Assembly (NCBI GenBank): GCA_026025075.1
Contig: JAPEUI010000153.1
Coordinates: 1-34,780, forward strand
Direction of reading: 5' to 3'
Length of the DNA: 34,780 bases
From: Vezdaea acicularis
Taxonomy: Eukaryota
The notes under the pieces are model-generated. The model made no database searches and was not told where the DNA came from. It saw nothing but the letters and a program-made list of their open reading frames with translations. A program made the translations under genes and the position numbers. Below are positions 4,145 through 34,270 of the stretch, piece by piece. Positions within the stretch are counted from its first letter, which is position 1; each line of letters begins with the position of its first letter.

Positions 4145-5715
4145 TCACCAGTGACAGAGCCCACCTTCGCTGTCGTCCATGGCCCAGGTTCCAGCCAGGC
4201 CGACAATTTGCACGTCTCCGTTAGCGTGTTCATCCACCGTACCAAGTGTTGCAAAAGCCCTCTTGTCTCCAGCTGGGCCATTGCTCAGGAGCCTTCGAGC
4301 CCATGCGTCGATTGCCGGCTCGCCTGTCTCGTCTCTCGCCTGCTTCAAAAAGGGTATTAAGGCAGTACCACCCGTTCCTCTAAGCTTCCTTTTGCCAGTG
4401 GCAGCGTCTGTATTCGATGCCATTGAAGCGATGTTAACTGGTTGCGGAGCAGTCCGTGGACTGATGGAACGGGAATGTGAGCGAGACTCGCGAGACTTGA
4501 CAACGATGTAGCGGGAGACCATTTGTATGTGCTTATCTCGGAATGCTCGAAGCATAGCCAAACAAGCATCATATGCTACGCAGAGCGCACGATTTGAGCG
4601 GTGGCTTTCTACATAGTCGCGGATGTTGGCAACGTTAGACACGTGGGTTAGAAAGCGTCGGTGAGGCCCTGGCATGTACGTGCGCATATTCTATGGACTT
4701 GTCAGTTGGAGGTATAGTGAGGTATGTGTGAGACTCATACCTGGATGAAATTATGCCTAGGAGGCGAGGGAATGCCTTCGTCACTTTCTAGGCTCTCCGC
4801 TTTCTTCTCTCCCGTAGGACGGTGTTCTATTCCCAGGATTATGTCAAAAAATTGAATCAACGAACTCTGTGCGTTGCTGCCCCCACTATACTGTCTATAA
4901 ACATCAACCCCAGTACCGTCTTCGTATATTACACCTCGAGGTAAGCCCGCATCCTCCATGTTCTTACTTCCAGCCAAGAAGGGCCTGATGCGATGATAGA
5001 ACACATGCGGATCGCAATTCTCGTACATCCTCTGGAGCATGGATCCTAGCTCATCCAATCTCTCTGCAAATGTATGCAGGGAGGCAATGACAATGTTACT
5101 GTCATTGGCTCTTGCCGCAGCAACAGCATTAAGCATGAGGGGTATTATGGGACCACCGCGAGCTTCGATTGCGACCGAGACCAAGTAGAACCATGACTCA
5201 TCCAGCGAACCAGTGAAGGTCGTCAAAGTCGACAGATTACCAAGACTATCTATATCTTCGTCGAGAAATAACGGCTTGAAGTTCCAGAGGCAAAGCGCAG
5301 CGTAGGTTGCAACTGGGGGCACCTCAAGATGGTCTGATACCTTGAGCAGAGGTATTGCAAGGCATTCTGGGATTCTCTACAATACTTGTTAGCGGCATTC
5401 AAAAGTATACATAGATGCACTTACGTCTGATGGTTTGTCTCCACCCCAGATGTAGGCATGAGCCATGAAAGCTAAAAGAGAATAAGCTCTTCTCCACTCG
5501 GATTCATGTTGTAGATTGTGAGTGGAAAGGATAGGTGTCCCATCAATCACTCCTCTTAGGCGTTTGCTAAGTATAAGACCTTGGAGGTTCGTCACGATGG
5601 CCTCCCATTTGCTATAATACGGGTCCGGAAGCACTCCCAAAGGGAGCTCCGCGGGTAAGAAGCCATTGACTGGGGAAATACCATAATCTTCGAGGGTTGG
5701 AATCGCTGGAATCAT
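4145..5715 (-). CDS. BNA2: Indoleamine 2,3-dioxygenase (kynurenine / de novo NAD pathway), 490 aa
   Basis: Model complement(join(4145..4690,4741..5376,5425..5715)). IDO motifs: YGISPVNGFLP, PPVATYAALCLWN, TFTGSLDESWFYLVSVAIE, FYHRIRPFLAG, YSGGSNAQSSLIQFFD, MRTYMPGPHRRFL, FRDKHIQMVSRYI (proximal His) and GTGGTALIPFLKQARDET. Confidence 0.95.
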
Positions 5716-11064: not shown

Positions 11065-12453
11065 ATGGGTTGTGGAATGAGCACCGAGGAGAAGGAGGGG
11101 AAGGCCCGGAACGAGGAGATTGAGAACCAGCTCAAGAGAGATAAAATGATGCAAAGGAACGAGATTAAGATGCTTCTTCTAGGTAAGTTTACAAGCGCAA
11201 GGAGTGTTCTCGTAGACATACTTGCTAATGCCCTCGTAGGAGCTGGTGAATCGGGCAAGTCAACAATCTTGAAACAGATGAAGCTCATCCACGAAGGTGG
11301 CTATTCCCGCGATGAAAGGGAGTCATTCAAGGAAATCATCTTCAGCAATACGGTCCAATCGATGCGAGTCATCCTAGAGGCGATGGAATCGTTAGAGCTG
11401 CCATTAGATGACCAGAGGGCCGAATATCACGTGCAGACGATTTTCATGCAGCCAGCTCAGATCGAGGGGGAAAGCCTACCACCTGAAGTTGGAAACGCTA
11501 TTGACTCGTTGTGGAAAGACGCTGGTGTTCAAGAATGCTTCAAGAGATCAAGAGAGTACCAATTAAATGATTCAGCACGATAGTGAGTGTCGCAAATCGT
11601 TTCGTATCGTAGAAGCAAATTGGCAGACTTGGAGCTGCCTTCCCCTACGAAAGGTACTAACAATCTTTTTTATCTAGCTACTTCGATTCGATCGGCCGGA
11701 TTGCTCAACCCGACTACCTCCCCAGCGATCAAGATGTTCTTCGCTCTCGCGTGAAAACAACCGGTATCACAGAGACCACATTCATCATTGGTGACCTTAC
11801 CTATCGGATGTTCGACGTCGGCGGACAAAGAAGTGAGCGGAAAAAGTGGATTCACTGCTTCGAGAACGTCACAACCATTCTATTCCTAGTTGCGATCTCC
11901 GAATATGACCAACTTCTTTTTGAAGACGAGACCGTCAACCGCATGCAAGAAGCCCTTACACTTTTTGATTCCATCTGCAACTCGCGGTGGTTCATTAGAA
12001 CTTCAATCATCTTGTTTTTGAACAAGATCGATCGTTTCAAGGAAAAGCTTCCAGTCTCACCAATGAAGAACTACTTTCCCGACTATGAAGGTGGAGCCGA
12101 CTATGGTGCAGCGTGCGATTACATTCTCAACCGCTTCGTTTCTCTGAATCAGCATGAGACGAAACAGATCTACACCCACTTCACCTGTGCAACAGACACT
12201 ACCCAGATCCGCTTTGTCATGGCGGCAGTGAACGGTACGTATCATTTTGTCTTTTCCCTTTTTAGTAAAGACCCGGGCAATATTTTCCTTGTTTTGTTTG
12301 CTGTGGTTGACTCTAGTCTCGCACCGCAGACATAATCATCCAACGCAATCTGCAAGAAGTGGGACTGCTGGCGTTGTGATCTAGCTGCTTACTTGCTGTC
12401 AATATGTAGACATAATCATTCAGGAAAACCTGCGATTGTGCGGTCTGATCTAG
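11065..12453 (+). CDS. fadA: Heterotrimeric G protein alpha subunit, fungal group I (FadA/GNA-1/MagB type), 353 aa canonical isoform
   Basis: Model join(11065..11182,11240..11582,11678..12234,12410..12453) = 1062 nt. It has the MGCGMS myristoylation/palmitoylation N-terminus, [10 protein letters not shown]-loop, [23 protein letters not shown] and the canonical C-terminus [14 protein letters not shown]. Confidence 0.98.
12330..12379 (+). CDS. Alternative terminal exon A of the G-alpha gene (C-terminus [16 protein letters not shown])
   Basis: GTTGAC branch-like motif at 12306-12311 and CAG acceptor at 12327-12329. The exon starts AC ATA ATC like the canonical exon, is in phase with the donor at 12235, and ends at TGA 12377-12379. 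Confidence 0.75.
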
Positions 12454-12480
12454 TCGCTGATCTGATCTTCCAACCTACAG

Positions 12481-12524
12481 ACATAACAATTCAGAAAAAC
12501 ATGGTTCAATCTGGTCTCATATGA
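12481..12524 (+). CDS. Alternative terminal exon C of the G-alpha gene (C-terminus DITIQKNMVQSGLI*)
   Basis: GCTGAT/TCTGAT branch motifs at 12456-12466 and CAG acceptor at 12478-12480. The exon starts AC ATA, has the same phase and the same 44-nt coding length as the canonical exon, and ends at TGA 12522-12524. Confidence 0.75.
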
Positions 12525-13128: not shown

Positions 13129-14162
13129 TCAGAATCTCAACTTAGGCAGAACTCCCACTATCAGTATCGCTATCACCATTAATCCCGCTATCCACGCATA
13201 CATCATCATTCTCCCCCACCAACCCTTTCCCTCTGTCATACGCCTCAACGAGCCTATCCGCCTCTCGGCCGCCTCCATCCCCAGGCTGTTCTTCTCCAAG
13301 TTCGCCCCAGTATTTGACAGCACATCTTTCTCCGATTCTAGACTACTGGCAAACGCCTTCGACGAGTTCTTCAACGCCGCCGCCATCTCGAGTAAGGAAT
13401 CAGTCAGTGTTTCTTGCTCTGTGCGTTGGTGGGAGAGAAGCGTTTCGCTGGTGGCTAGCGAGGCATTTGGGACGGGCTCCGAGGAAGTAGTTGCGGATGA
13501 TGCGGTAAAGAGCTCCGCGCCGCCATGGCGGGAACGGAGTTGGGATGTCTCTGGAAGAGTGGAGGGGCGTCGACGGTCGAGAGGTGAGGGCTCTTGTATA
13601 GTGGGCGTCGGTTGCGTCGCGGCGTGGGGAAGGTATTCCTTCAACAGGTCTTCAGCTTCGGAGCTGGCGAGGTCATCATCGTAATCATCGCCAAGCTGTG
13701 TTCTCAGATGATACAGGTTAGCCATCAAACCATTTTCGTTCTGCTTCGGCAGTCGCAACAAACTGAGCATCAAAGCCTCACCTGGCTGAGCTCATACAAG
13801 CGCTCATTCAACCTCTTGATCAGTTGTTTCTTCGCCCTCAGGTCTGCCTGCACATTCCGCTCCCGGCTGGCGCCTGCAGCTTTGCTGCCCGAATTCTCCT
13901 GCTCCAGGCGGAGTAATAATGTTCGGGCATACTCGAGGTTCTGCATATCACAGGTTTGTCAGCAGACATTTCCAACTGGCAAGTCTTTCCGTAGAGCCGC
14001 ACTCACTTTCCCAATCCGCGTCCGATCGTAGTCTGTGATCCGGGTTGGTGAGCTCGACGCTTCCGGAGATAGTAGAGTCGTTTCAAGGCGTGAGAGAAGC
14101 CGGGAGAGGTTGATGGCCGTTGTATTCGCAGACGGCGCAGGTGTGGAGTTTGTGTGCACCAT
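13129..14162 (-). CDS. USE1: Use1-like ER SNARE (tail-anchored), 293 aa
   Basis: Model complement(join(13129..13695,13782..13940,14007..14162)), with GTGAG donors and CAG acceptors. Features: N-terminal INLSRLLSRLE...NLEYARTLLLRLEQE, SNARE coiled coil HQRTEQETLTDSLLEMAAALKNSSKAF...LEKNSLGMEAAERRI, and a C-terminal TM segment WWGRMMMYAWIAGLMVIAILIVGVLPKLRF. Confidence 0.85.
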
Positions 14163-16957
14163 GCTTAATGCAGACAATGCTCTTGCATTGCGTACGCCCG
14201 GTTTTTATGGCATTTTACGTTTGTGGGGTTAGTTTCATCAGTTGGGATACTTGGAGCTTGCGTCTTGGGCAGCTATGCCTTGCGAGCTTCTTCGGTTGCG
14301 AGCTATCTTCCGCCAATCAAGCATTTCGCCCACGCACCTTTCCCACACATGTCAAAAACCAGCTCCAGCATTTCTTCAATATCGGTTTCTGTGAAGCTCT
14401 CGAACAGGGCCTATTCTACTGTGAACAAGGCAACCAGTTCATCCACCCATTGTTACACGGACGCGGCTCTCTTCTTGTCCAGTCGACCACAGAGAGGTCT
14501 TCATGGCTTGCGCTTATCCTTTTATAGACTGGTCTCGGTACCTTAAGGACTACGACACTGGCACAATACTGCGACAAAGCCCAAGAAGGCTGGTCCTTGA
14601 GCTTTCCGAGTTGGACCTCGGATGAGAGGAAAAACAGCAGATTCTCCGGATTGCCCTGATCTACGAAGCCGATGTCCCTCTCGGGTAGTGAAGGTATGGC
14701 ACATGACTGTTTCAAGCCACCTTTGTGGGACTCGAGCAGGTATGCGTGTTGAAGTCGACGTCAGGAATCAGGGGATCAACTGCTGATCGCTGTTCATTTC
14801 CAGTTTGAATAGATCTCTTACCGACTAGACTTGGTGGTCATCGAAGAGTATTGCGGGACAACGTCGGACCTTTCTCCGTGGCCCCAATGGAAGCTCACGA
14901 TCCCCTACCGGAATGGGGTTGTAATCATAACCAAGGTTAGGGGAGTCCTACGCTCATTTCGGTTACTTGGTAAGTTCTTCGAAGTCAAGCTAGCTCCCGA
15001 GGGCTTAATTCTTGTTCCTGAACATCTACCTTGACCAAAACGGCACCATCATGATGATCATCACACTTTAAGCATAGTTCACCTGAGGCCTTTGGGTCAC
15101 TGAACGAAGCAATTGTATCCATCTTTCGCTCCTATCTGACTACTGGATTGTCTCTCTCGGCTCTTTCGGGCAATCTCACAAGCAGTCTTCTCATTTGCTC
15201 AGTTTGCTGACACTTGCATGACACTCTCTAGTCTTACTGGCTATCTGGATGACCACACCGTCCGGCGGCCGTCAGCGCTCGTATTCACGCGTCTGAACCC
15301 CTTCCCCAGCCTTCCGCCAATATGCCATGGCCTGAGCGGTAGGGAAACCACGATTGGAAGTCGGTAGGCTAGTCCGCGATGCACATGGCCGCACGGAGCA
15401 ACAAACGTGGCAGCTTGATCCGACAGATGGTCAATCCGTACCCAAGCTGTCTTGCCTGTGTCCCGGGGCACAATTCGCGCTTCTGGGCGAGAATAATCCG
15501 GGATACTCGCATCTGTGATTGGTGGGGAGAGCGTGACTTATGAGCCTAATTCGCAATTCGAGACAATCCCCACGATACCTGCACTCCGAGCCGGGCTGAT
15601 CGAGCGCTCGCTCTCGATGTAAACTGAGGGAATTCACCAAGATCTATCCCGCCCAGTGATCTGGAAGCTTGGCATCCATCTAGTTACAGAAAGGTCAACG
15701 ATCTAACCGAGTCACATCGTATCGGTTTCATGAGAGAGATGATCCGACAGATTGGCAGATGTATCAAATTGTGGCATGGCCGGTGGGCGAAGTGGTCTTG
15801 CTAACTCTCGTCCTGCTGGGGGCACTGGATCGGACTACAGCAGCGGCACATCGCATCTCCACGCGCACTAGCCTTGTCCTTGACGTCAATGGGGAAACGG
15901 GGATGATTTGGCGGCCGCAAGCCGTAGACACCACCAGCTTTCAATATCGCGAAAGACGAAAGGCTAAAGGCGAAAGCCGCGCAGTCGCAGGACGACGAGG
16001 TTGCTTGGCAGCTGTCGTGATGGGTTTCATGTTTGTGAGAGCTTTTGCGACGACATTTCCTATCCACGCAGCAAAAGGCGAACGCTCGGGTTGCTCTGAA
16101 GAGGCAGCGTCAAGGCTTATGAAGGGGGGAGACTCTCCAGACGCGATGTTTGATCGCATGGAGCCGCTCGAGCAGCCGATCGCTGAAGGGTCTCGGTCTG
16201 CGCTCCGGACGGGAGATCGCACGGAAAGCGTGACCGGATCGGACGCGTGACGATGGCACGGACGATTGTGGTAGGCGGGCAGGGCTGGGGGGCCGTCTCA
16301 GATCGGAAGGACCCTGCCCGCCGACGTGCAAATCTTTTCCCATCTGCGACGTGGAGGCAGCGCCGCGTCTGATTCCAGTCGTTGCGGTGCGAGACGGGCG
16401 AGAGGAGCTCGAGTCGAGCGCGGCATGGAACGAGGTGGACCCCTTCTTTCATTTGCGCACCTCGTCCCTTTCCTCTTAGTCCTGGAGATTGCCACTACGC
16501 ATTTAATATCGTGCTATCGGTAGGATCTGGGTGGGCGGCTGAGAACATGTCTTGGCGAGCATTTGTGCGATGACGAGGTGGGGACGGTGGACGGTCGAAT
16601 GGCCGTGGGGGGCAGCGACGAAGGGCCGGCCGCGGCTCACCTGGGAAAGTGCCGCTGACGCTGACGCTCACACTCGCTCTCGCTCTGCCCGCGGCTGCCA
16701 AAAGCCAACGCGAGCCGAAGCGACGGAAAGACCGGTCCTTGCCGGCCCTCCCATTAGTGCGCGCCAGTCCGGAGCAGAGGGAGGGGAGGGCAGGGGGGCG
16801 GAGAGGAGCAGAGCAGGGAAAGGGCATCGTCACTGCCCAACTGGCGGCCCACGAAAGCCTTCGCCGTGGGGAAAATTGTCGAGCGTACGCCCTGCAATCT
16901 GCGGACATGATGCGCTCGAATGTCGCAACTTCACGGTGCCGCGATAGAGAGGGAGAG

Positions 16958-16992
16958 GAGAGAAGAGAGAAGAGAGAAGAGAGAAGAGAGAA
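16958..16992 (+). repeat. Heptanucleotide tandem repeat (GAGAGAA)x5
   Basis: Five perfect copies within a longer purine tract. An 11-nt G run lies nearby at 17074-17084. Confidence 0.9.
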
Positions 16993-17994
16993 GAGGGGGA
17001 CGAGAGCTGGAGGAGAGTCTCGCGCGATGGGGAAGGTAGGCTGGTCGGCGAGAGTCGGCCACGAACGCAGCGCGGGGGGGGGGGAAGGTGGGATCAACCC
17101 GAGAGCCCGCGGTCTTGCCAATGGCGCTCGACCCTTGTGCAGCCCCGACACCCCACATGGATGGACATGGACCCCCCCGAGCAAAATGGCCCACAGACCA
17201 TCGACCACACGTCGTCGCTGCACGCTCTTGCGTCTCCGCCATCCCTCTCGTCCGTGGCGTCCGCTCCGCGCCATCCACCGTCTTGGCCGAGCGAGTATAA
17301 TTCTGGCCTCCCTCTCGCTCCAGCGTCCACGATCCAATCCCATCCAGTCCGATATGCAGTCGCTCTTGTGCGGCCATCCACTCTCCGCCGTCACCGTACA
17401 CCATTCCCGCGCCTACTGGCTCAGCCTCTGTTCTTGCATGACAGCAGGACGACCGTCTTGACCCCCTGCACCCACTGCCGTCACCGCTCGTCAGACGGCC
17501 GCCCACAAACAACACCACTTCCTCTGCTCGCTCTCTAAACCGGGCACCCCTCCTCCCTTCCTCCCCGCTCGCTTTCCTCTCCAACCCTTTCACATTTCTG
17601 CCCGACTGATACCACTGCTCCCGTTGAGGATGCTCACCGTTCAGGATGCCCACGTCGGGACTCTGGTTTGCTAGGTGCTCCCGGACGGCTATATACTCGT
17701 ACGACGCCATCACCGCTCTTCCACGCATGACATCTGGCACGGTGATCTTGCCGTACAAGTGCTACTGCTCCCCTCCCGAGTCCGGATGATAGACTCGATC
17801 CTCTTTACTCCACTGCAACCCTTTGTGATACCATCACGAGAAGCCCGGATTCCCCATACCCGTGAGGATTGACGTTGGTGCGTGTTCGCATATATCTACC
17901 GTTCCTGGACCCTCGGGAGCAACCTGGATAATCGGGCCTGGAGAGGACTATCTTCGTTCCTTGGCTTCAAAGCTGGACGATCTACAGACAGGTG

Positions 17995-21155: not shown

Positions 21156-22309
21156 CTACTCCTCCCTTTCCGCCCACACGCCATTCAAAAACGCCACGAA
21201 ACCCTCCACCCACCTCTCCCCCCCCTCTCCCATCGGTCTAAGCACCACTCCCGCCCCCGGTCCTCCCTGTCGCTGCATCCCCTCAAACTGCCTCCTCAAT
21301 CTCTGCAGCTGTCCCACCGAGGGTTTCGTGGGTGGAAGCTCCAACCTAGCCGCACAAGCCGGTATCGCGAGAGTCGCGGATGAAGAGCCAGGGTTATCGG
21401 CGTAGTGCTGGGATATCGTCGCGATGACACTTGTTGTGGCTGTTGTGAGGGCGGTTAGTGAGGAGGACGAGGAGGAGGGAGTGGGAGGGGGGAGGAGGGT
21501 GGCTTTGTTGCGTTTGATGGGCAGGCCGGTGTTTAGGGGGCCGATCAGGGCGAGCCAGATTAGGTTGTAGGGCGGGTGGGGGTCGGTGGTGGGGAGGGTG
21601 AAGAGGGGGCGGTCCCAGCGGGTTAGGCCGGTGGGTTCTTCGTAGCGGTAGAGGAGGTTGAGGAGGAGGGGGGGGTCGTAGGGGGGTGGGGTGGAGGAGG
21701 GGGAGAAGGGGTTGGTGGGTGGGGTGGGGTTGTTTTCTATGTCTGCTTCTTCCTTGGCTTCGCCCTCGCGCTCTCGCTCCGGTTCCTGTTCCTGCTCACG
21801 CCGTTGCAGCCTAGCTTCATTCCTCTTAATACACTCCTCTTCCGACGCAGCGACATGCACGACGCAACTGGGTGTGCCGACCGCCTTCGCCTCGCAATAT
21901 AGCTGGTACCTATAGCCCTTGATATAGTTCAAGCCATCAGCGATGACGAGCGCGTTGTGCGAGAGGGCGCGCTTGACGGCGCTATACTCGGCTGCGCGCG
22001 CGGCCTTTTCGAGGGACGCGCTGGCGTAGACGGTGGGTGGTAAGGAGAGGGAGTGTGGAGATATTGGTGGGGGGACTGTGAGGTTTAGGATATATGGTGT
22101 TGGGTTTGTTGGAGAGGGCGAAGAGGTGGTTGGTGAGGTGGGGGAGGTGGAGGACGAATTTTGGAGGGAGGATAGTTCGTTGCTGAACCATTCGTGCAGT
22201 TGGGCGGCGCGGTAGGTCTTTCCGCTGCATGGGTAGCCCGTTATAATGATTAGCTATGGGGAGAGGGTTAGCGCGAGCGAAGAGAGGGCGATTGAGAGCT
22301 TACTGGCAT
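21156..22309 (-). CDS. KTI12: Elongator-associated ATPase KTI12, 367 aa
   Basis: Model complement(join(21156..22253,22304..22309)): a 6-nt first coding exon (ATG CCA|GTAAGC...GCTAAC...TAG). Motifs: MP-LIIITGYPCSGKT (P-loop), EKAARAAEYSAVKRALS, VIADGLNYIKGYRYQLYCEAK, RYEEPTGLTRWDRPLF and LQRLRRQF. Confidence 0.93.
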
Positions 22310-29812: not shown

Positions 29813-32088
29813 ATGAATTTCTTTGAGTCTCTTCCCTACGATGTGCTATTCAACATTACGAATAATCTAAGCTTTGAGGACATCGTCAATCTGTCTCGAG
29901 CTTCTCCTCTAACGTGGTCTCTACTGTCTGAGGAGACGGTTTGCAGGCGCACTGTTGAAGTTAGTCAGCCAAAGATATAAGCTTACGTGGCTTCTCATGG
30001 AACGCAACGTTGACAAAATCTTAGAAACATATGCCCAATACGCGAGAGGCGCAGCTTGCTAGGATGTACACGAAGGAGGCGCAGCTCGCGCACATAGAAA
30101 ATCGTCATAAGCGGCATAAAGTCGACAGACCCTATAGGGCTGCGCTTCAAAAAATCCATACTCGTCATCAAGCTTACGCAACTGCGAGTCCGGTCTCTGC
30201 TGCTATTCTGAGCTACAGCTCGGCCTCCTTTCTTTATTCCGATGGCGTTCTCTGCTATCAATCTGAGGGACATGTTCGCGTTCTAGATATTCATGCCTCT
30301 GCGTCTAAAGAGTGTGTTATCAATATTAGCAGTCTTATCATCTCAACTATCAGTCCCCCACCTAAAAACCCCAGGACTGGGAGATTTACCCTTCTCAATT
30401 ATAGTCATGGCATAATAGCTTGCTTGTATCAAAGCAAAGGACTAAATGCGCCTGCGTACCTGCTCGCTATAGATGTTGGGATCGGTGGCACGAAACCGGG
30501 GAGGTGCATTCTTGCATTTCCGATTGAAGGTACCACCAATAAGATGATCGCGAGGCACAATGACAAGTATCTTTATTTCGGTACCCATAACCTTGATGAA
30601 GAAGGCCATAGAGAATGGTGTTTCACAGGTATTAACCTTGTTGATGGTTCTCGCATGGACGCCCAGGTCAAGCCTAACAAGTTCATCGGTTCTGACATCA
30701 ATTCAAATGTCACCTTCACAATACATGGCTCATATTTTTACGCTCTATCATCACAGAGATGCTTTGAAGAGGTGGATTATACATCTTGCTACCATTGTGT
30801 CCGATTTCTTCTCTCAGACCCCCTAGAAGTTGAAATTCGAGACAAGATTTGGCGTCGCCAACATACAGAAGGTCCAATCAACGATCTGTGGACGGATTTA
30901 CGATTGTTACCAGACGAACGTACAGGCGAGCTATTGATCGTTGAGGCTCGTCGAGAGTGGAGAAAGGGGGCACCACAAACCCAGCGAACGTACTACATGC
31001 AGCCATTGCCCCCTGCATTTGCTCCTGGTACTGACAACACGGGCACGCCGCTTGGATCGTCCCCACAGCAATCCCCTGTGGATCTCAGTGGCTCATCGGA
31101 TAGCTCGTTGACTAATAATGTAGACGCTGAGATGCTAGATCCTCCAGCTGAGGAAGGTGAGACCGCAAACTTAGCAACGCAACATACATCCGCCTCGCAT
31201 ACGGCATCTCCTCGCCGTCTTCACGACCTTCCAGAAGAAGATCGCCAGATAGAACCGCTTCTCAGGAAAACCGACGCTCCTCATTACCAAAAGGAAAGGC
31301 CTCGTCTTCCACGCTATGTGCACGAAGGAGACAACGCATTAACAAAGCGAACCTTCATTCTTGCCAGAACCAAGTTGAGGGCGTACAACCCAGCCGCAAA
31401 CGCCTTTCTCGACTTGGTCGATGATCCCGTAACAGATCCAATTACGCATGCTACTCGCTCACGGTTACGAATCCGTGTCGGCGCACGGAAATTGAAACCG
31501 CCGGCTCGAAAGGAGGGGTTTCTCAAAGGGCCCGGAATTGACGAGAGAACCGGAGAAGCCTTCGAAGAGGGCATGCAAGAAGAATACGAACCTCTCAATC
31601 CAGACGGCCCAATCTTATGGCCCCCCTCGCCGCCCTCATCTCCTCGGATGGGACCTACCCAAGTTCCGAGCATAGATGAAGCAGAGCTAACTCTGTTGAC
31701 CAACATACTCAATCCCACGGGACCACCATCTAGCGGGCAGGCTGGCCCAATGGCGGTATCTCCCGCTGCCGATGTCCACGCCTTATCTGATGCGCATTGC
31801 GTGGTCTACTCCACGCCTTATCCCACACCTCCCGGTCAGAAGCAAAAGCGAGCTCTTGTCTTAATCAACTTCGACGCTGCGGTGGGGATTCCCCGACCTG
31901 CTGACAACGCCGCAGAACTCACCGAGGTGCAAAAACCCCCAGCTGCCGAAAAGGAAAACTTTTTGCTCCAAGAAACAGTCGGTGTGAGTGGTCAACAAGA
32001 GCCGATGGAGATTGAAAGGCCTAGGTGGTGGAGGGAGGAGCCTGCGAGATGGGTATCCGTTGGGCTGGGCTGGCGCGCACATAGATAA
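29813..32088 (+). CDS. F-box domain protein, 736 aa
   Basis: Model join(29813..29959,30025..32088), intron GTTAGT...TTGAC...TAG in phase 0. The N-terminal F-box-like motif is FESLPYDVLFNITNNLSFEDIVNLSRAS. The large beta-rich body contains WRRQHTEGPINDLWTDLRL. Confidence 0.85.
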
Positions 32089-32529
32089 TCGATTAGAGAT
32101 TGAATGTTCCTTTTTCCCCACTTCTGTGCTTTTCCAATGCAATACTTGAAGGAAGAGGGGCGAACTCCGGTTGGCCATGCAAGTAACAAAAAGCAAGCAA
32201 AGTGATACTAGGCGAAAAGCGTGGAAAATCCGTGACTAATCATACGTCGAATGCCCCTGGAATGAGGCTCTTTGCCACATTCGGAAGGCAGATCCGGTGA
32301 CATTTCTGGGCAGCAGTAACCCCTGCCAAATTTATGACTTGATGGCAAGGCAGCCTTCGCTAACCCCAGGCGAGTGGCAACTCTAATCTCTCCGTCAAGG
32401 TTACGTATTATGAGTTCATTCTCCATGCTTCGTATTGAATGCGACTATGCTCATAGAGACCCATGTGACCCCAAACTCAAACGCCAAGAGAGCCTCAGCC
32501 TCATGCAAACCAACACCAACGGCGCCCCT

Positions 32530-34270
32530 CTAGTTCAATTTGACATAGTTCCCTAAGTGAGCAGTCAGAACCTTGTGATAAGAGCGGGGTAGAAGGCCTG
32601 GAACAGCCACGAATCTTCAGATCCGACGTACCAGGAAACGATCCTTCTTTTCCATGTATTTTCCCTGTCCACCATTCATTCTCCGTCGCCCCCCTCTGCA
32701 CAACCTCGATTACGTCCCCTGTACTGAAGCTCAGATCGCCCGTCGCCTGGGCCTCGTAATCGTAAAGGGCTGTTGCCGTCTCGATGGGCGCAGTTGGCGC
32801 ACCACTCAGCCTCGCTGGCTTTGGCTTAGGGGGTGGAGGGGCCGCACCTTTTGACTTGGCTGCAGCGCCCCATGCACTTCCTGTTGAGTTCGCTCGGCCT
32901 AGAGACGTGGTATCGGCCGCGCCGAGACCCGAACTGTAGGGTGGAGGGGGGTTGTTCACGAAGTCATGGGTTGCTCTACGGTTCGGAGGGTCTGCTTTGC
33001 CGTTTTCGATGGCGAGGGGACGGGTGGAGCCGGCTCGGCCGTTCTCGATGGCAAGGCGGCCAGCTGCGCCATATTTTGCAGGCCGCCGACCGCCAGTTGT
33101 CTTGTATTTGACTATTGAGAGGGCTTCGGCTTTTTCTTTTATATCCCCGCGCTTGGCGTTGTAGGCTTCTTCTATGTCGAGGGTGAGGTCGAAGTAACCA
33201 ATGTCGATATTTTGCATCTTCTCGTGTAAGGTGTAGAAGACATTTAGTTGCATATAGTAAAAGGACTGGAAAAGGGGCCGTATGAATTCTCGTTCGAGAG
33301 CGAAGAGTTTGGGTAGCTCTTCTTTTAGGAGATCGTTGAAGTAGTTAAAATCTTGCGTTGATTGCTCGACATCATTTTCTGCTTTGTACATTGCTTTCTC
33401 ATCCTTTAGGGTCTTATCTTTTTTGTCTTGAAGCTTCTTCAGTGATGCTCGATGCCTATCATAATCGAGTTGTTTGTGTTGTCGTTTGGTAAGGGATTTC
33501 TGTACTACTTTTATTACTTCTAAAAGTTCTTCCGCTGGCTTGATGACGCGGCTCTCTATCATCTCAAGCTCGGGTTGTAATGTCTCTAGTAGCTCTCGTA
33601 CGATACTCTCATATTCCTCACATGCTCTTATGCCTTCAGGATTGCCCTCTGGTATTATGGAATCAGGGTCGGAGACCCGGCCAGATATCGGTCGGTATAT
33701 TTCTGCGATAGCTTTGGAGAATTCGATTTGGTGATTTAGCATTGCTATGATCCGCCTCAACGCATGCTTTACATATCTCGAACTGCCATTGAAGCTAACC
33801 TTTTATTGCGTCAAAATATCTACGATAGATTAGTGATTAATTCCAAGATGTTCAGCAAAGACTATCTAAGCTCACTTTTTTGACTCGACATGTAAGCGTT
33901 TAGTTTCCTTGATAGCGCAACCTACCGTTAGTCTTCATATCCGAGGCCGTGAGAAGGCGGGCAACATTACGGTCTCGAGCTCTTGAAACCTTCTTTCGGC
34001 ATCAATGTAGACTGCATCTTTGGTGTTGTCGCCCTAATTATCACATAGCGGCTATCAGCGCATTTGCACTGCTTGCGATTGGAGCAGCGAGGAGGAGCTG
34101 CATTTCAGGTGAGATATTTCTCATTTCGTACCACATTGAATCTGGACTTGACTGTTTGAGGTGTCTATATATATTGTCAGCATTGAAGACGCCCCATTCG
34201 CATAAACAAAAGTAGGCCGAGACGGATTACTGACACGAGCAACGCTTTTCGTGAAGCCTTTCCAACTCAT
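32530..34270 (-). CDS. RVS167: Amphiphysin-like BAR-SH3 protein Rvs167, 439 aa
   Basis: Model complement(join(32530..32552,32632..33744,33800..33819,33876..33907,33971..34033,34132..34164,34235..34270)) = 1320 nt. It starts [74 protein letters not shown] (N-BAR), has a PPPPY motif, and ends in the SH3 domain ALYDYEAQATGDLSF...EWWTG...GSFP-GNYVKLN. Confidence 0.95.

Follow-up and report, generated by a model that had tools for sequence, protein, structure and literature searches.

In the vertebrate GNAO (GNAO1) gene, the final exons are duplicated as the pairs 7.1-8.1 and 7.2-8.2, which are used alternatively, according to PMC5896119. The same article describes preGNAS of amphioxus, in which the C-terminal exon that encodes helix alpha5 is duplicated, and its authors propose that this diversified the interaction with receptors. 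C-terminal transplants of yeast Gpa1, in turn, are a standard laboratory tool to re-route receptor coupling (PMC6476273, citing Brown et al. 2000). The initial annotation of the DNA analyzed here had invoked both precedents, the alternative C-terminal exons of animal GNAO1 and the re-routing of coupling by tail swaps in yeast Gpa1 chimeras, and both are described in these sources.

For fungi, the initial annotation knew of no description of alternative tails in group I G-alpha genes, and this agrees with our full-text literature search, which found no fungal report of alternative G-alpha tails among the articles searched. In a 2025 review on fungal G proteins (PMC13267034), no word begins with "splic," "isoform," or "intron." We describe here a G-alpha gene of Vezdaea acicularis, located in four parts on the + strand of contig JAPEUI010000153.1. 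The window, by which we mean the whole stretch of DNA that was analyzed, is 34,780 nucleotides long. Filamentous fungi typically have about three G-alpha subunits, against dozens of predicted receptors, and the way in which few alpha subunits sort many inputs is the question on which this gene bears.

The G-alpha gene and its surroundings

The gene, as judged from its sequence, encodes a fungal group I (Gi-like) G-protein alpha subunit. Exons 2 and 3 both match the Pfam domain PF00503 (Table 1), exon 2 being 95% identical to annotated G-alpha proteins and exon 3 being 97% identical to fungal group I G-alpha proteins, and the group I identity given in the initial annotation stands on these matches. 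The open reading frame from position 11065 begins with MGCGMS. This is a myristoylation-type N terminus of the form MGxxxS, which we take to be a defining motif of group I G-alpha proteins. A CxxX end with a pertussis-toxin-type cysteine at position -4 is present in one of the three tails described below, tail B (CGLI). The cysteine is absent from tail A, in which V is the aligned residue and two further residues follow, and from tail C, which has S. A pertussis-toxin-type cysteine site is mentioned for GNA-1 in PMC13267034. The closest annotated proteins, at 95 to 97% identity, carry group I-type tails, and group II/III-type tails (TILQNALKDSGIL, ILLQLHLRECGLL) were encountered only in loci of 57 to 76% identity.

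The genes that neighbor the G-alpha gene, encoding a Use1-like SNARE, KTI12, an F-box protein, and a BAR-SH3 protein, are ordinary housekeeping genes. A short intron interrupts the indoleamine 2,3-dioxygenase gene of the same window; its donor is GTATGA, its branch-like motif is CTGAC, and its acceptor is TAG. Between positions 16000 and 18000 the window is GC-rich (61%, versus about 48% elsewhere) and contains long overlapping open frames on both strands (16495 to 17761); the one frame scanned in this stretch gave no Pfam match. Conservation of the G-alpha exons is too strong for them to indicate where the organism belongs. The best database match of the F-box protein is only 42% identical, and its named matches are scattered over lichen-forming and other Pezizomycotina, so the source belongs to a poorly sampled ascomycete lineage.

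Three tandem tail modules

Beyond exon 3 lie three modules, A, B, and C, each comprising a short tail exon preceded by a YAG acceptor and a branch-like motif (Table 1). The sequence ACATAA comes directly after each of the three acceptors, and the Asp codon is completed in all of them. The tail exons start 80 and 71 nt apart, and the distances from the common donor to the acceptors correspond to introns of 95, 175, and 246 nt for A, B, and C, respectively. All three exons are in phase 1, have AG|AC junctions, contain no internal stops, and run to a stop codon of their own, features that were read from the DNA sequence only. The peptide of tail C, including the leading Asp, is DITIQKNMVQSGLI.

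Table 1. Features of the G-alpha gene, its three tail modules, and neighboring genes in the window
Feature	Positions	Strand	Description
Indoleamine 2,3-dioxygenase gene	4145-5376	-	PF01231, E 8.7e-84 and 2.3e-42
G-alpha exon 1	11065-11182	+	Starts MGCGMS; phase-1 end at G|GTAAGT; open reading frame
G-alpha exon 2	11240-11582	+	P-loop GAGESGKST and helical domain; PF00503, E 2.6e-33
G-alpha exon 3	11678-12234	+	Ends ...FVMAAVN plus first base (G) of Asp codon; PF00503, E 4.9e-87
Shared phase-1 5' splice site GTACGT	12235-12240	+	AAC G|GTACGT; same intron position in 33 related loci
Module A splice signals	12307-12329	+	Branch-like TTGAC (putative branch) 12307-12311; acceptor CAG 12327-12329; 19 nt apart
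Tail exon A	12330-12379	+	50 nt; D plus 15 residues; stop TGA 12377-12379
Module B splice signals	12388-12409	+	Branch-like CTTAC (putative branch) 12388-12392; acceptor TAG 12407-12409; 18 nt apart
Tail exon B	12410-12453	+	44 nt; D plus 13 residues; stop TAG 12451-12453; canonical group I tail
Module C splice signals	12457-12480	+	CTGAT twice (putative branch) 12457-12466; acceptor CAG 12478-12480; 15 and 20 nt apart
Tail exon C	12481-12524	+	44 nt; (D)ITIQKNMVQSGLI; stop TGA 12522-12524
Use1-like SNARE gene	13129-13791	-	Convergent with the G-alpha gene
KTI12 gene	21156-22253	-	
F-box protein gene	30025-32088	+	Best database match discussed in the text
BAR-SH3 protein gene	32501-33802	-	

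The three units align over 98 columns, 31 of which are invariant, and their homology spans the spacer upstream of each acceptor and continues through the stop codon. A 13-residue BLOSUM scan against the canonical tail, comprising 550,458 windows in six frames of the 80 related loci introduced below and of 4 kb of the window, gave scores of 64 for B, 36 for A, and 29 for C. Tails A and C are 54 to 62% identical to B (7 to 8 of 13 residues). At the nucleotide level, the copies differ from one another at 14 to 20 of the 39 coding bases, and they also differ in their spacers. Tandem Repeats Finder called no repeat over the tail units because the copies are too diverged. The likeness of the three units exceeds what chance would give, and the tandem triplication is real and diverged. 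The initial annotation had described three homologous units, in phase and with splice signals, and the 98-column alignment, the YAG acceptors, and the open frames bear this out; a base-level re-reading found all of its coordinates and translations to be correct.

A fourth, decayed copy was sought in the 95-nt stretch before A and downstream of C, and the local alignments there were no better than those with shuffled sequences, the best scores being reached by 455 of 2,000 and 337 of 1,000 shuffles. Gene conversion from group II/III paralogues was considered as a source of A and C and was rejected, since it is group I tails that they resemble, rather than those of the ILLQLHLRECGLL or TILQNALKDSGIL type.

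A yTnAy branch-like motif is found 15 to 20 nt upstream of every acceptor: TTGAC in A, CTTAC in B, and CTGAT, twice, in C. In introns of the same organism that were placed by homology, the motifs are CTAAT and CTAAC in introns 1 and 2 of the G-alpha gene and CTGAC in the indoleamine dioxygenase gene. The branch consensus is CTRAY, and of the three modules only C has motifs that fit it. Branch-like motifs are short and often expected by chance, so their presence shows only that nothing excludes the use of the acceptors. The proximal acceptor is that of A, and the branch-like motif 19 nt before it is intact. An extra AG at 12315 to 12316 lies only 5 to 6 nt past the putative branch of A, and an AG so near the branch is normally skipped. 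A search for a stable RNA structure that might steer the choice of acceptor gave nothing significant (z of -1.67; 8 of 100 shuffled sequences gave a fold as stable or more so).

Occurrence in related loci

A scan of metagenome contigs yielded 568 relatives of the gene, of which the best 80 were kept for comparison. Close relatives are not among these 80, in which nucleotide identity to the gene reaches 75% at best. Exactly one coding-strand tail segment scoring at least 28 was found in 67 of the 80 loci, and a second tail at that threshold was found in none of the best 80 of the 568. A second tail-like match in one locus (L058) was dismissed as a chance match, lying in G/T-rich sequence that has no acceptor. 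The initial annotation had proposed to look for repeated tail units in related genes, and none was seen: 0 of 80 loci carry a second tail, with the limit that none is a close relative. The triplication thus appears to be lineage-specific and not general to the Pezizomycotina.

The intron that precedes the tail has a wider distribution. In 33 of the 80 loci, the tail is split from ...AVN by an intron at the exact same phase-1 position, with a length of 34 to 78 nt (median, 52). The tail is contiguous in 17 further loci, which are intronless or cDNA-like contigs, and each of the remaining 30 either is of another G-alpha group or did not permit evaluation. The occurrence at the same position in 33 related loci indicates that the intron isolating the last 14 codons is old and widespread, the triplication being seen only here. 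Whichever acceptor is considered, the last intron of the V. acicularis gene (95, 175, or 246 nt) is longer than that of any of the 33 loci.

Homologous proteins were also compared. A recognizable tail was present in 103 of them, representing 38 distinct tails, and none of the 38 closely resembles A or C. Tail B is identical to the commonest of these fungal tails (32 of the 103 proteins), in keeping with its designation as canonical in the initial annotation.

Selection on the tails

Tails A and B differ at 16 of 39 bases, yet 8 of their 13 residues are identical. Among the eight codons whose residue is unchanged, four carry a purely synonymous difference (ATC/ATT, CAA/CAG, AAT/AAC, and GGA/GGT), and the changes are concentrated in five codons. 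In a neutral test, B was randomly substituted at the same number of sites, and we recorded how often the resulting peptide was as tail-like as the one observed. When peptides were scored on a profile of 25 external group I tails, 16 substitutions in B reached the score of A in 0 of 200,000 trials, and the same 25-tail profile test gave a P value of 0.023 for C. With only 12 substitutions, the P value for A was 6e-5 to 2e-4. Assuming a transition bias or fewer substitutions gave 6e-5 to 2.7e-3 for A; under these assumptions, the value for C was 0.04, rising to 0.5. The 3' half was tested alone, which excludes a gene-conversion tract over the conserved 5' part, and gave P values of 2e-5 for A and 0.029 for C. 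A plain BLOSUM62 comparison with B alone, free of outside information, gave 0.0016 for A and 0.059 for C.

Protein-level constraint on tail A is upheld across the tests (P from <1e-5 to 2.7e-3). This pattern indicates that tail A is maintained as an alpha5 tail at the protein level, far beyond what neutral drift would leave. Constraint on tail C is marginal, and its signal vanishes if fewer substitutions are assumed. Tail B is clearly constrained, as it is identical to the commonest, consensus tail. If A and B are both constrained, both should be translated, and this would require an alternative choice of acceptor. With regard to the conservation of the duplicate exons, selection is supported for A and marginal for C, in an arrangement found in 0 of 80 loci, none of them close relatives.

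Residues of the tails and receptor docking

The scaffold common to the tails is I-I/T-I-Q-x-N-L/M-x-x-x-G-L-L/I. Tails A, B, and C differ at positions -9, -6, -5, and -4, which are also variable positions among the 38 distinct natural tails. At -4, both V and S are found in natural group I tails (REVGLL and RESGLI).

Tail A runs two residues past the usual C terminus. Among the 103 homologous tails, a C-terminal extension of one residue was seen in three and one of two residues in none. A few annotated or predicted group I G-alpha subunits (P0048, P0055, and P0239) end one residue later (...CGLIY or ...CGILF), so small C-terminal extensions do exist in the databases.

Position -6 is Q in A and V in C, and it is R or K in 38 of the 38 distinct tails sampled. 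A distant G-alpha (locus L066, positions 1079 to 1120; 60% identity to exon 3) ends in IILQRNLQSSGFL. Its tail and tail A both have QRNLQ and both are without a basic residue at -6, so Gln at -6 occurs in some natural G-alpha tails outside group I. Because of the extension of A and the missing R/K at -6, tails A or C could uncouple the G-alpha subunit from receptors instead of re-routing it; the A and C isoforms could be activated by other receptors, be coupled less strongly, or be uncoupled altogether.

Proposed function and alternatives

The reading that we prefer, at somewhat better than even confidence, is that alternative 3' splice-site choice produces isoforms A and B at a minimum and perhaps C as well. 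The last coding exon encodes no more than the 14 residues that end helix alpha5 and that insert into the activated receptor, and this exon has been tandemly triplicated together with its putative branch site and acceptor, at a period of approximately 71 to 80 nt. All three copies share the single phase-1 donor at 12235, and the choice among the three branch-site/acceptor modules would put tail A, B, or C on an identical G-alpha core. The tail exon that is spliced in would supply the stop codon, and any copies further downstream would end up as 3' UTR. Splicing to B would give the canonical protein. Splicing to A, and less certainly to C, would give isoforms that keep the conserved alpha5 scaffold but are changed at -9, -6, -5, and -4, with two additional residues in A, and such isoforms would be expected to alter which receptors activate the G-alpha subunit, or how well they do so. 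The sequence comparisons establish how the locus is laid out, that its copies are homologous, that the arrangement is rare, and that A is constrained as a protein; the use of the acceptors, the production of isoforms, and a difference in receptor coupling are inferred.

Alternative use is favored by the position of A, in that an unused decoy so proximal to the donor would divert splicing from the canonical tail, and by the phase-1 intron that makes the tail a module, found in 33 related loci. Counting against alternative use are the extra tails seen in 0 of 80 loci, the marginal status of C, the extension of A, the lack of R/K at -6, the likelihood that branch-like motifs arise by chance, and the negative result of the search for a steering RNA fold.

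Several of these points would suit a locus in which only tail B is spliced in and in which A, lying inside a long last intron of 175 nt, and C, lying in the 3' UTR, are functionless leftovers of duplication that are slowly decaying. The restriction of extra tails to this locus (0 of 80) points to a young or lineage-restricted arrangement, C is not clearly constrained (P of 0.02 to 0.06), the end of A is extended, and neither A nor C has the R/K at -6 that is present in all 38 distinct tails. However, drift is a very unlikely account of tail A, the scaffold of which has been retained despite 16 changes in 39 bases, four of them synonymous ones in unchanged residues (P from <1e-5 to 2.7e-3). The AG, the phase, the open frame, and a branch-like motif have been kept in all three copies, moreover, and an intact proximal acceptor that gives a useless protein should be selected against. 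We therefore regard the exclusive use of B as unlikely.

We attach a similarly low probability to the idea that A, and possibly C, is used but is receptor-blind, such that the choice of acceptor would set the dose of competent G-alpha or supply a form that binds G-beta-gamma. Had coupling simply been lost, there would be no need for the alpha5 scaffold of A and its G-L-L to be so well preserved, and natural tails that presumably function include some with V or S at -4. What speaks for receptor-blind isoforms is the two-residue extension of A and the absence of the basic -6 residue from A and C. C-terminal additions to G-alpha subunits generally impair coupling. In the S49 "unc" mutant of mammalian Gs, an Arg-to-Pro change six residues from the end reportedly uncouples the protein from receptors.

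By far the least credible account is an artefact of sequencing or assembly, whether from reads that were collapsed or expanded or from a contig that is chimeric. The triplication was read from a single assembly. Errors of assembly yield identical or near-identical repeats and not diverged in-frame ones, and the 14 to 20 differences in 39 coding bases, the differing spacers, and the absence of a Tandem Repeats Finder call make an artefact very unlikely.

If alternative acceptor choice does operate, fitting one core with any of three receptor-docking tails would be a compact means of widening or gating coupling. The gene would then also be an instance, rare among fungi, of alternative splicing that diversifies a protein and that stems from exons duplicated in tandem; so far, this design has been described in animal G-alpha genes (PMC5896119). 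Going further, it can be proposed that a filamentous ascomycete multiplexes a single Gi-type alpha subunit over sets of receptors by regulated choice among three alpha5 tails, a GNAO-style solution that would have arisen independently of animals; we advance this tentatively, and on balance we lean against it. Should only B be used, the locus would still be a clear illustration that a functional peptide can become a duplicable module by virtue of a conserved intron position.

Comparison with known G-alpha systems

FadA, GNA-1, and MagB are the names that we take to represent the canonical class of single-tail fungal group I G-alpha proteins. The V. acicularis gene is like the canonical genes in belonging to the same family, in having the phase-1 intron before the Asp codon that 33 loci share, and in carrying, as B, the same tail. 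It differs from the canonical relatives sampled in the number of tail exons and in the introns that lead to them: one tail exon after an intron of 34 to 78 nt in the relatives and three in this gene, after 95, 175, and 246 nt.

The likeness to GNAO is in the local duplication of receptor-coupling C-terminal exons in a gene of the Gi/o class, with the same core provided with different receptor-facing ends; alternative use, described for GNAO in PMC5896119, would be a further likeness. GNAO has two alternatives, whereas this gene has three tails. According to that article, GNAO swaps a pair of full-sized exons; here, only a terminal mini-exon of 44 to 50 nt is concerned, encoding the last 14 to 16 residues, and the exchange would take place by acceptor choice within what is effectively one terminal exon. 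The GNAO alternatives are described there as conserved across all major vertebrate clades, whereas the fungal arrangement has been seen in one genome only.

With amphioxus preGNAS, the gene shares a lineage-specific tandem duplication of an alpha5-encoding exon. The amphioxus gene, as presented in the same source, is an animal gene of the Gs class with two copies that are 80 to 81% identical in protein sequence. Here, unlike in preGNAS, there are three copies, and A and C are 54 to 62% identical to B. As in the Gpa1 transplants outlined in PMC6476273, only the extreme C-terminal residues would be exchanged on a constant G-alpha core. Those transplants are laboratory constructs, whereas this locus would be a natural, genome-encoded version in which tails A and C may couple to receptors. 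The closest known cases are animal GNAO and amphioxus preGNAS.
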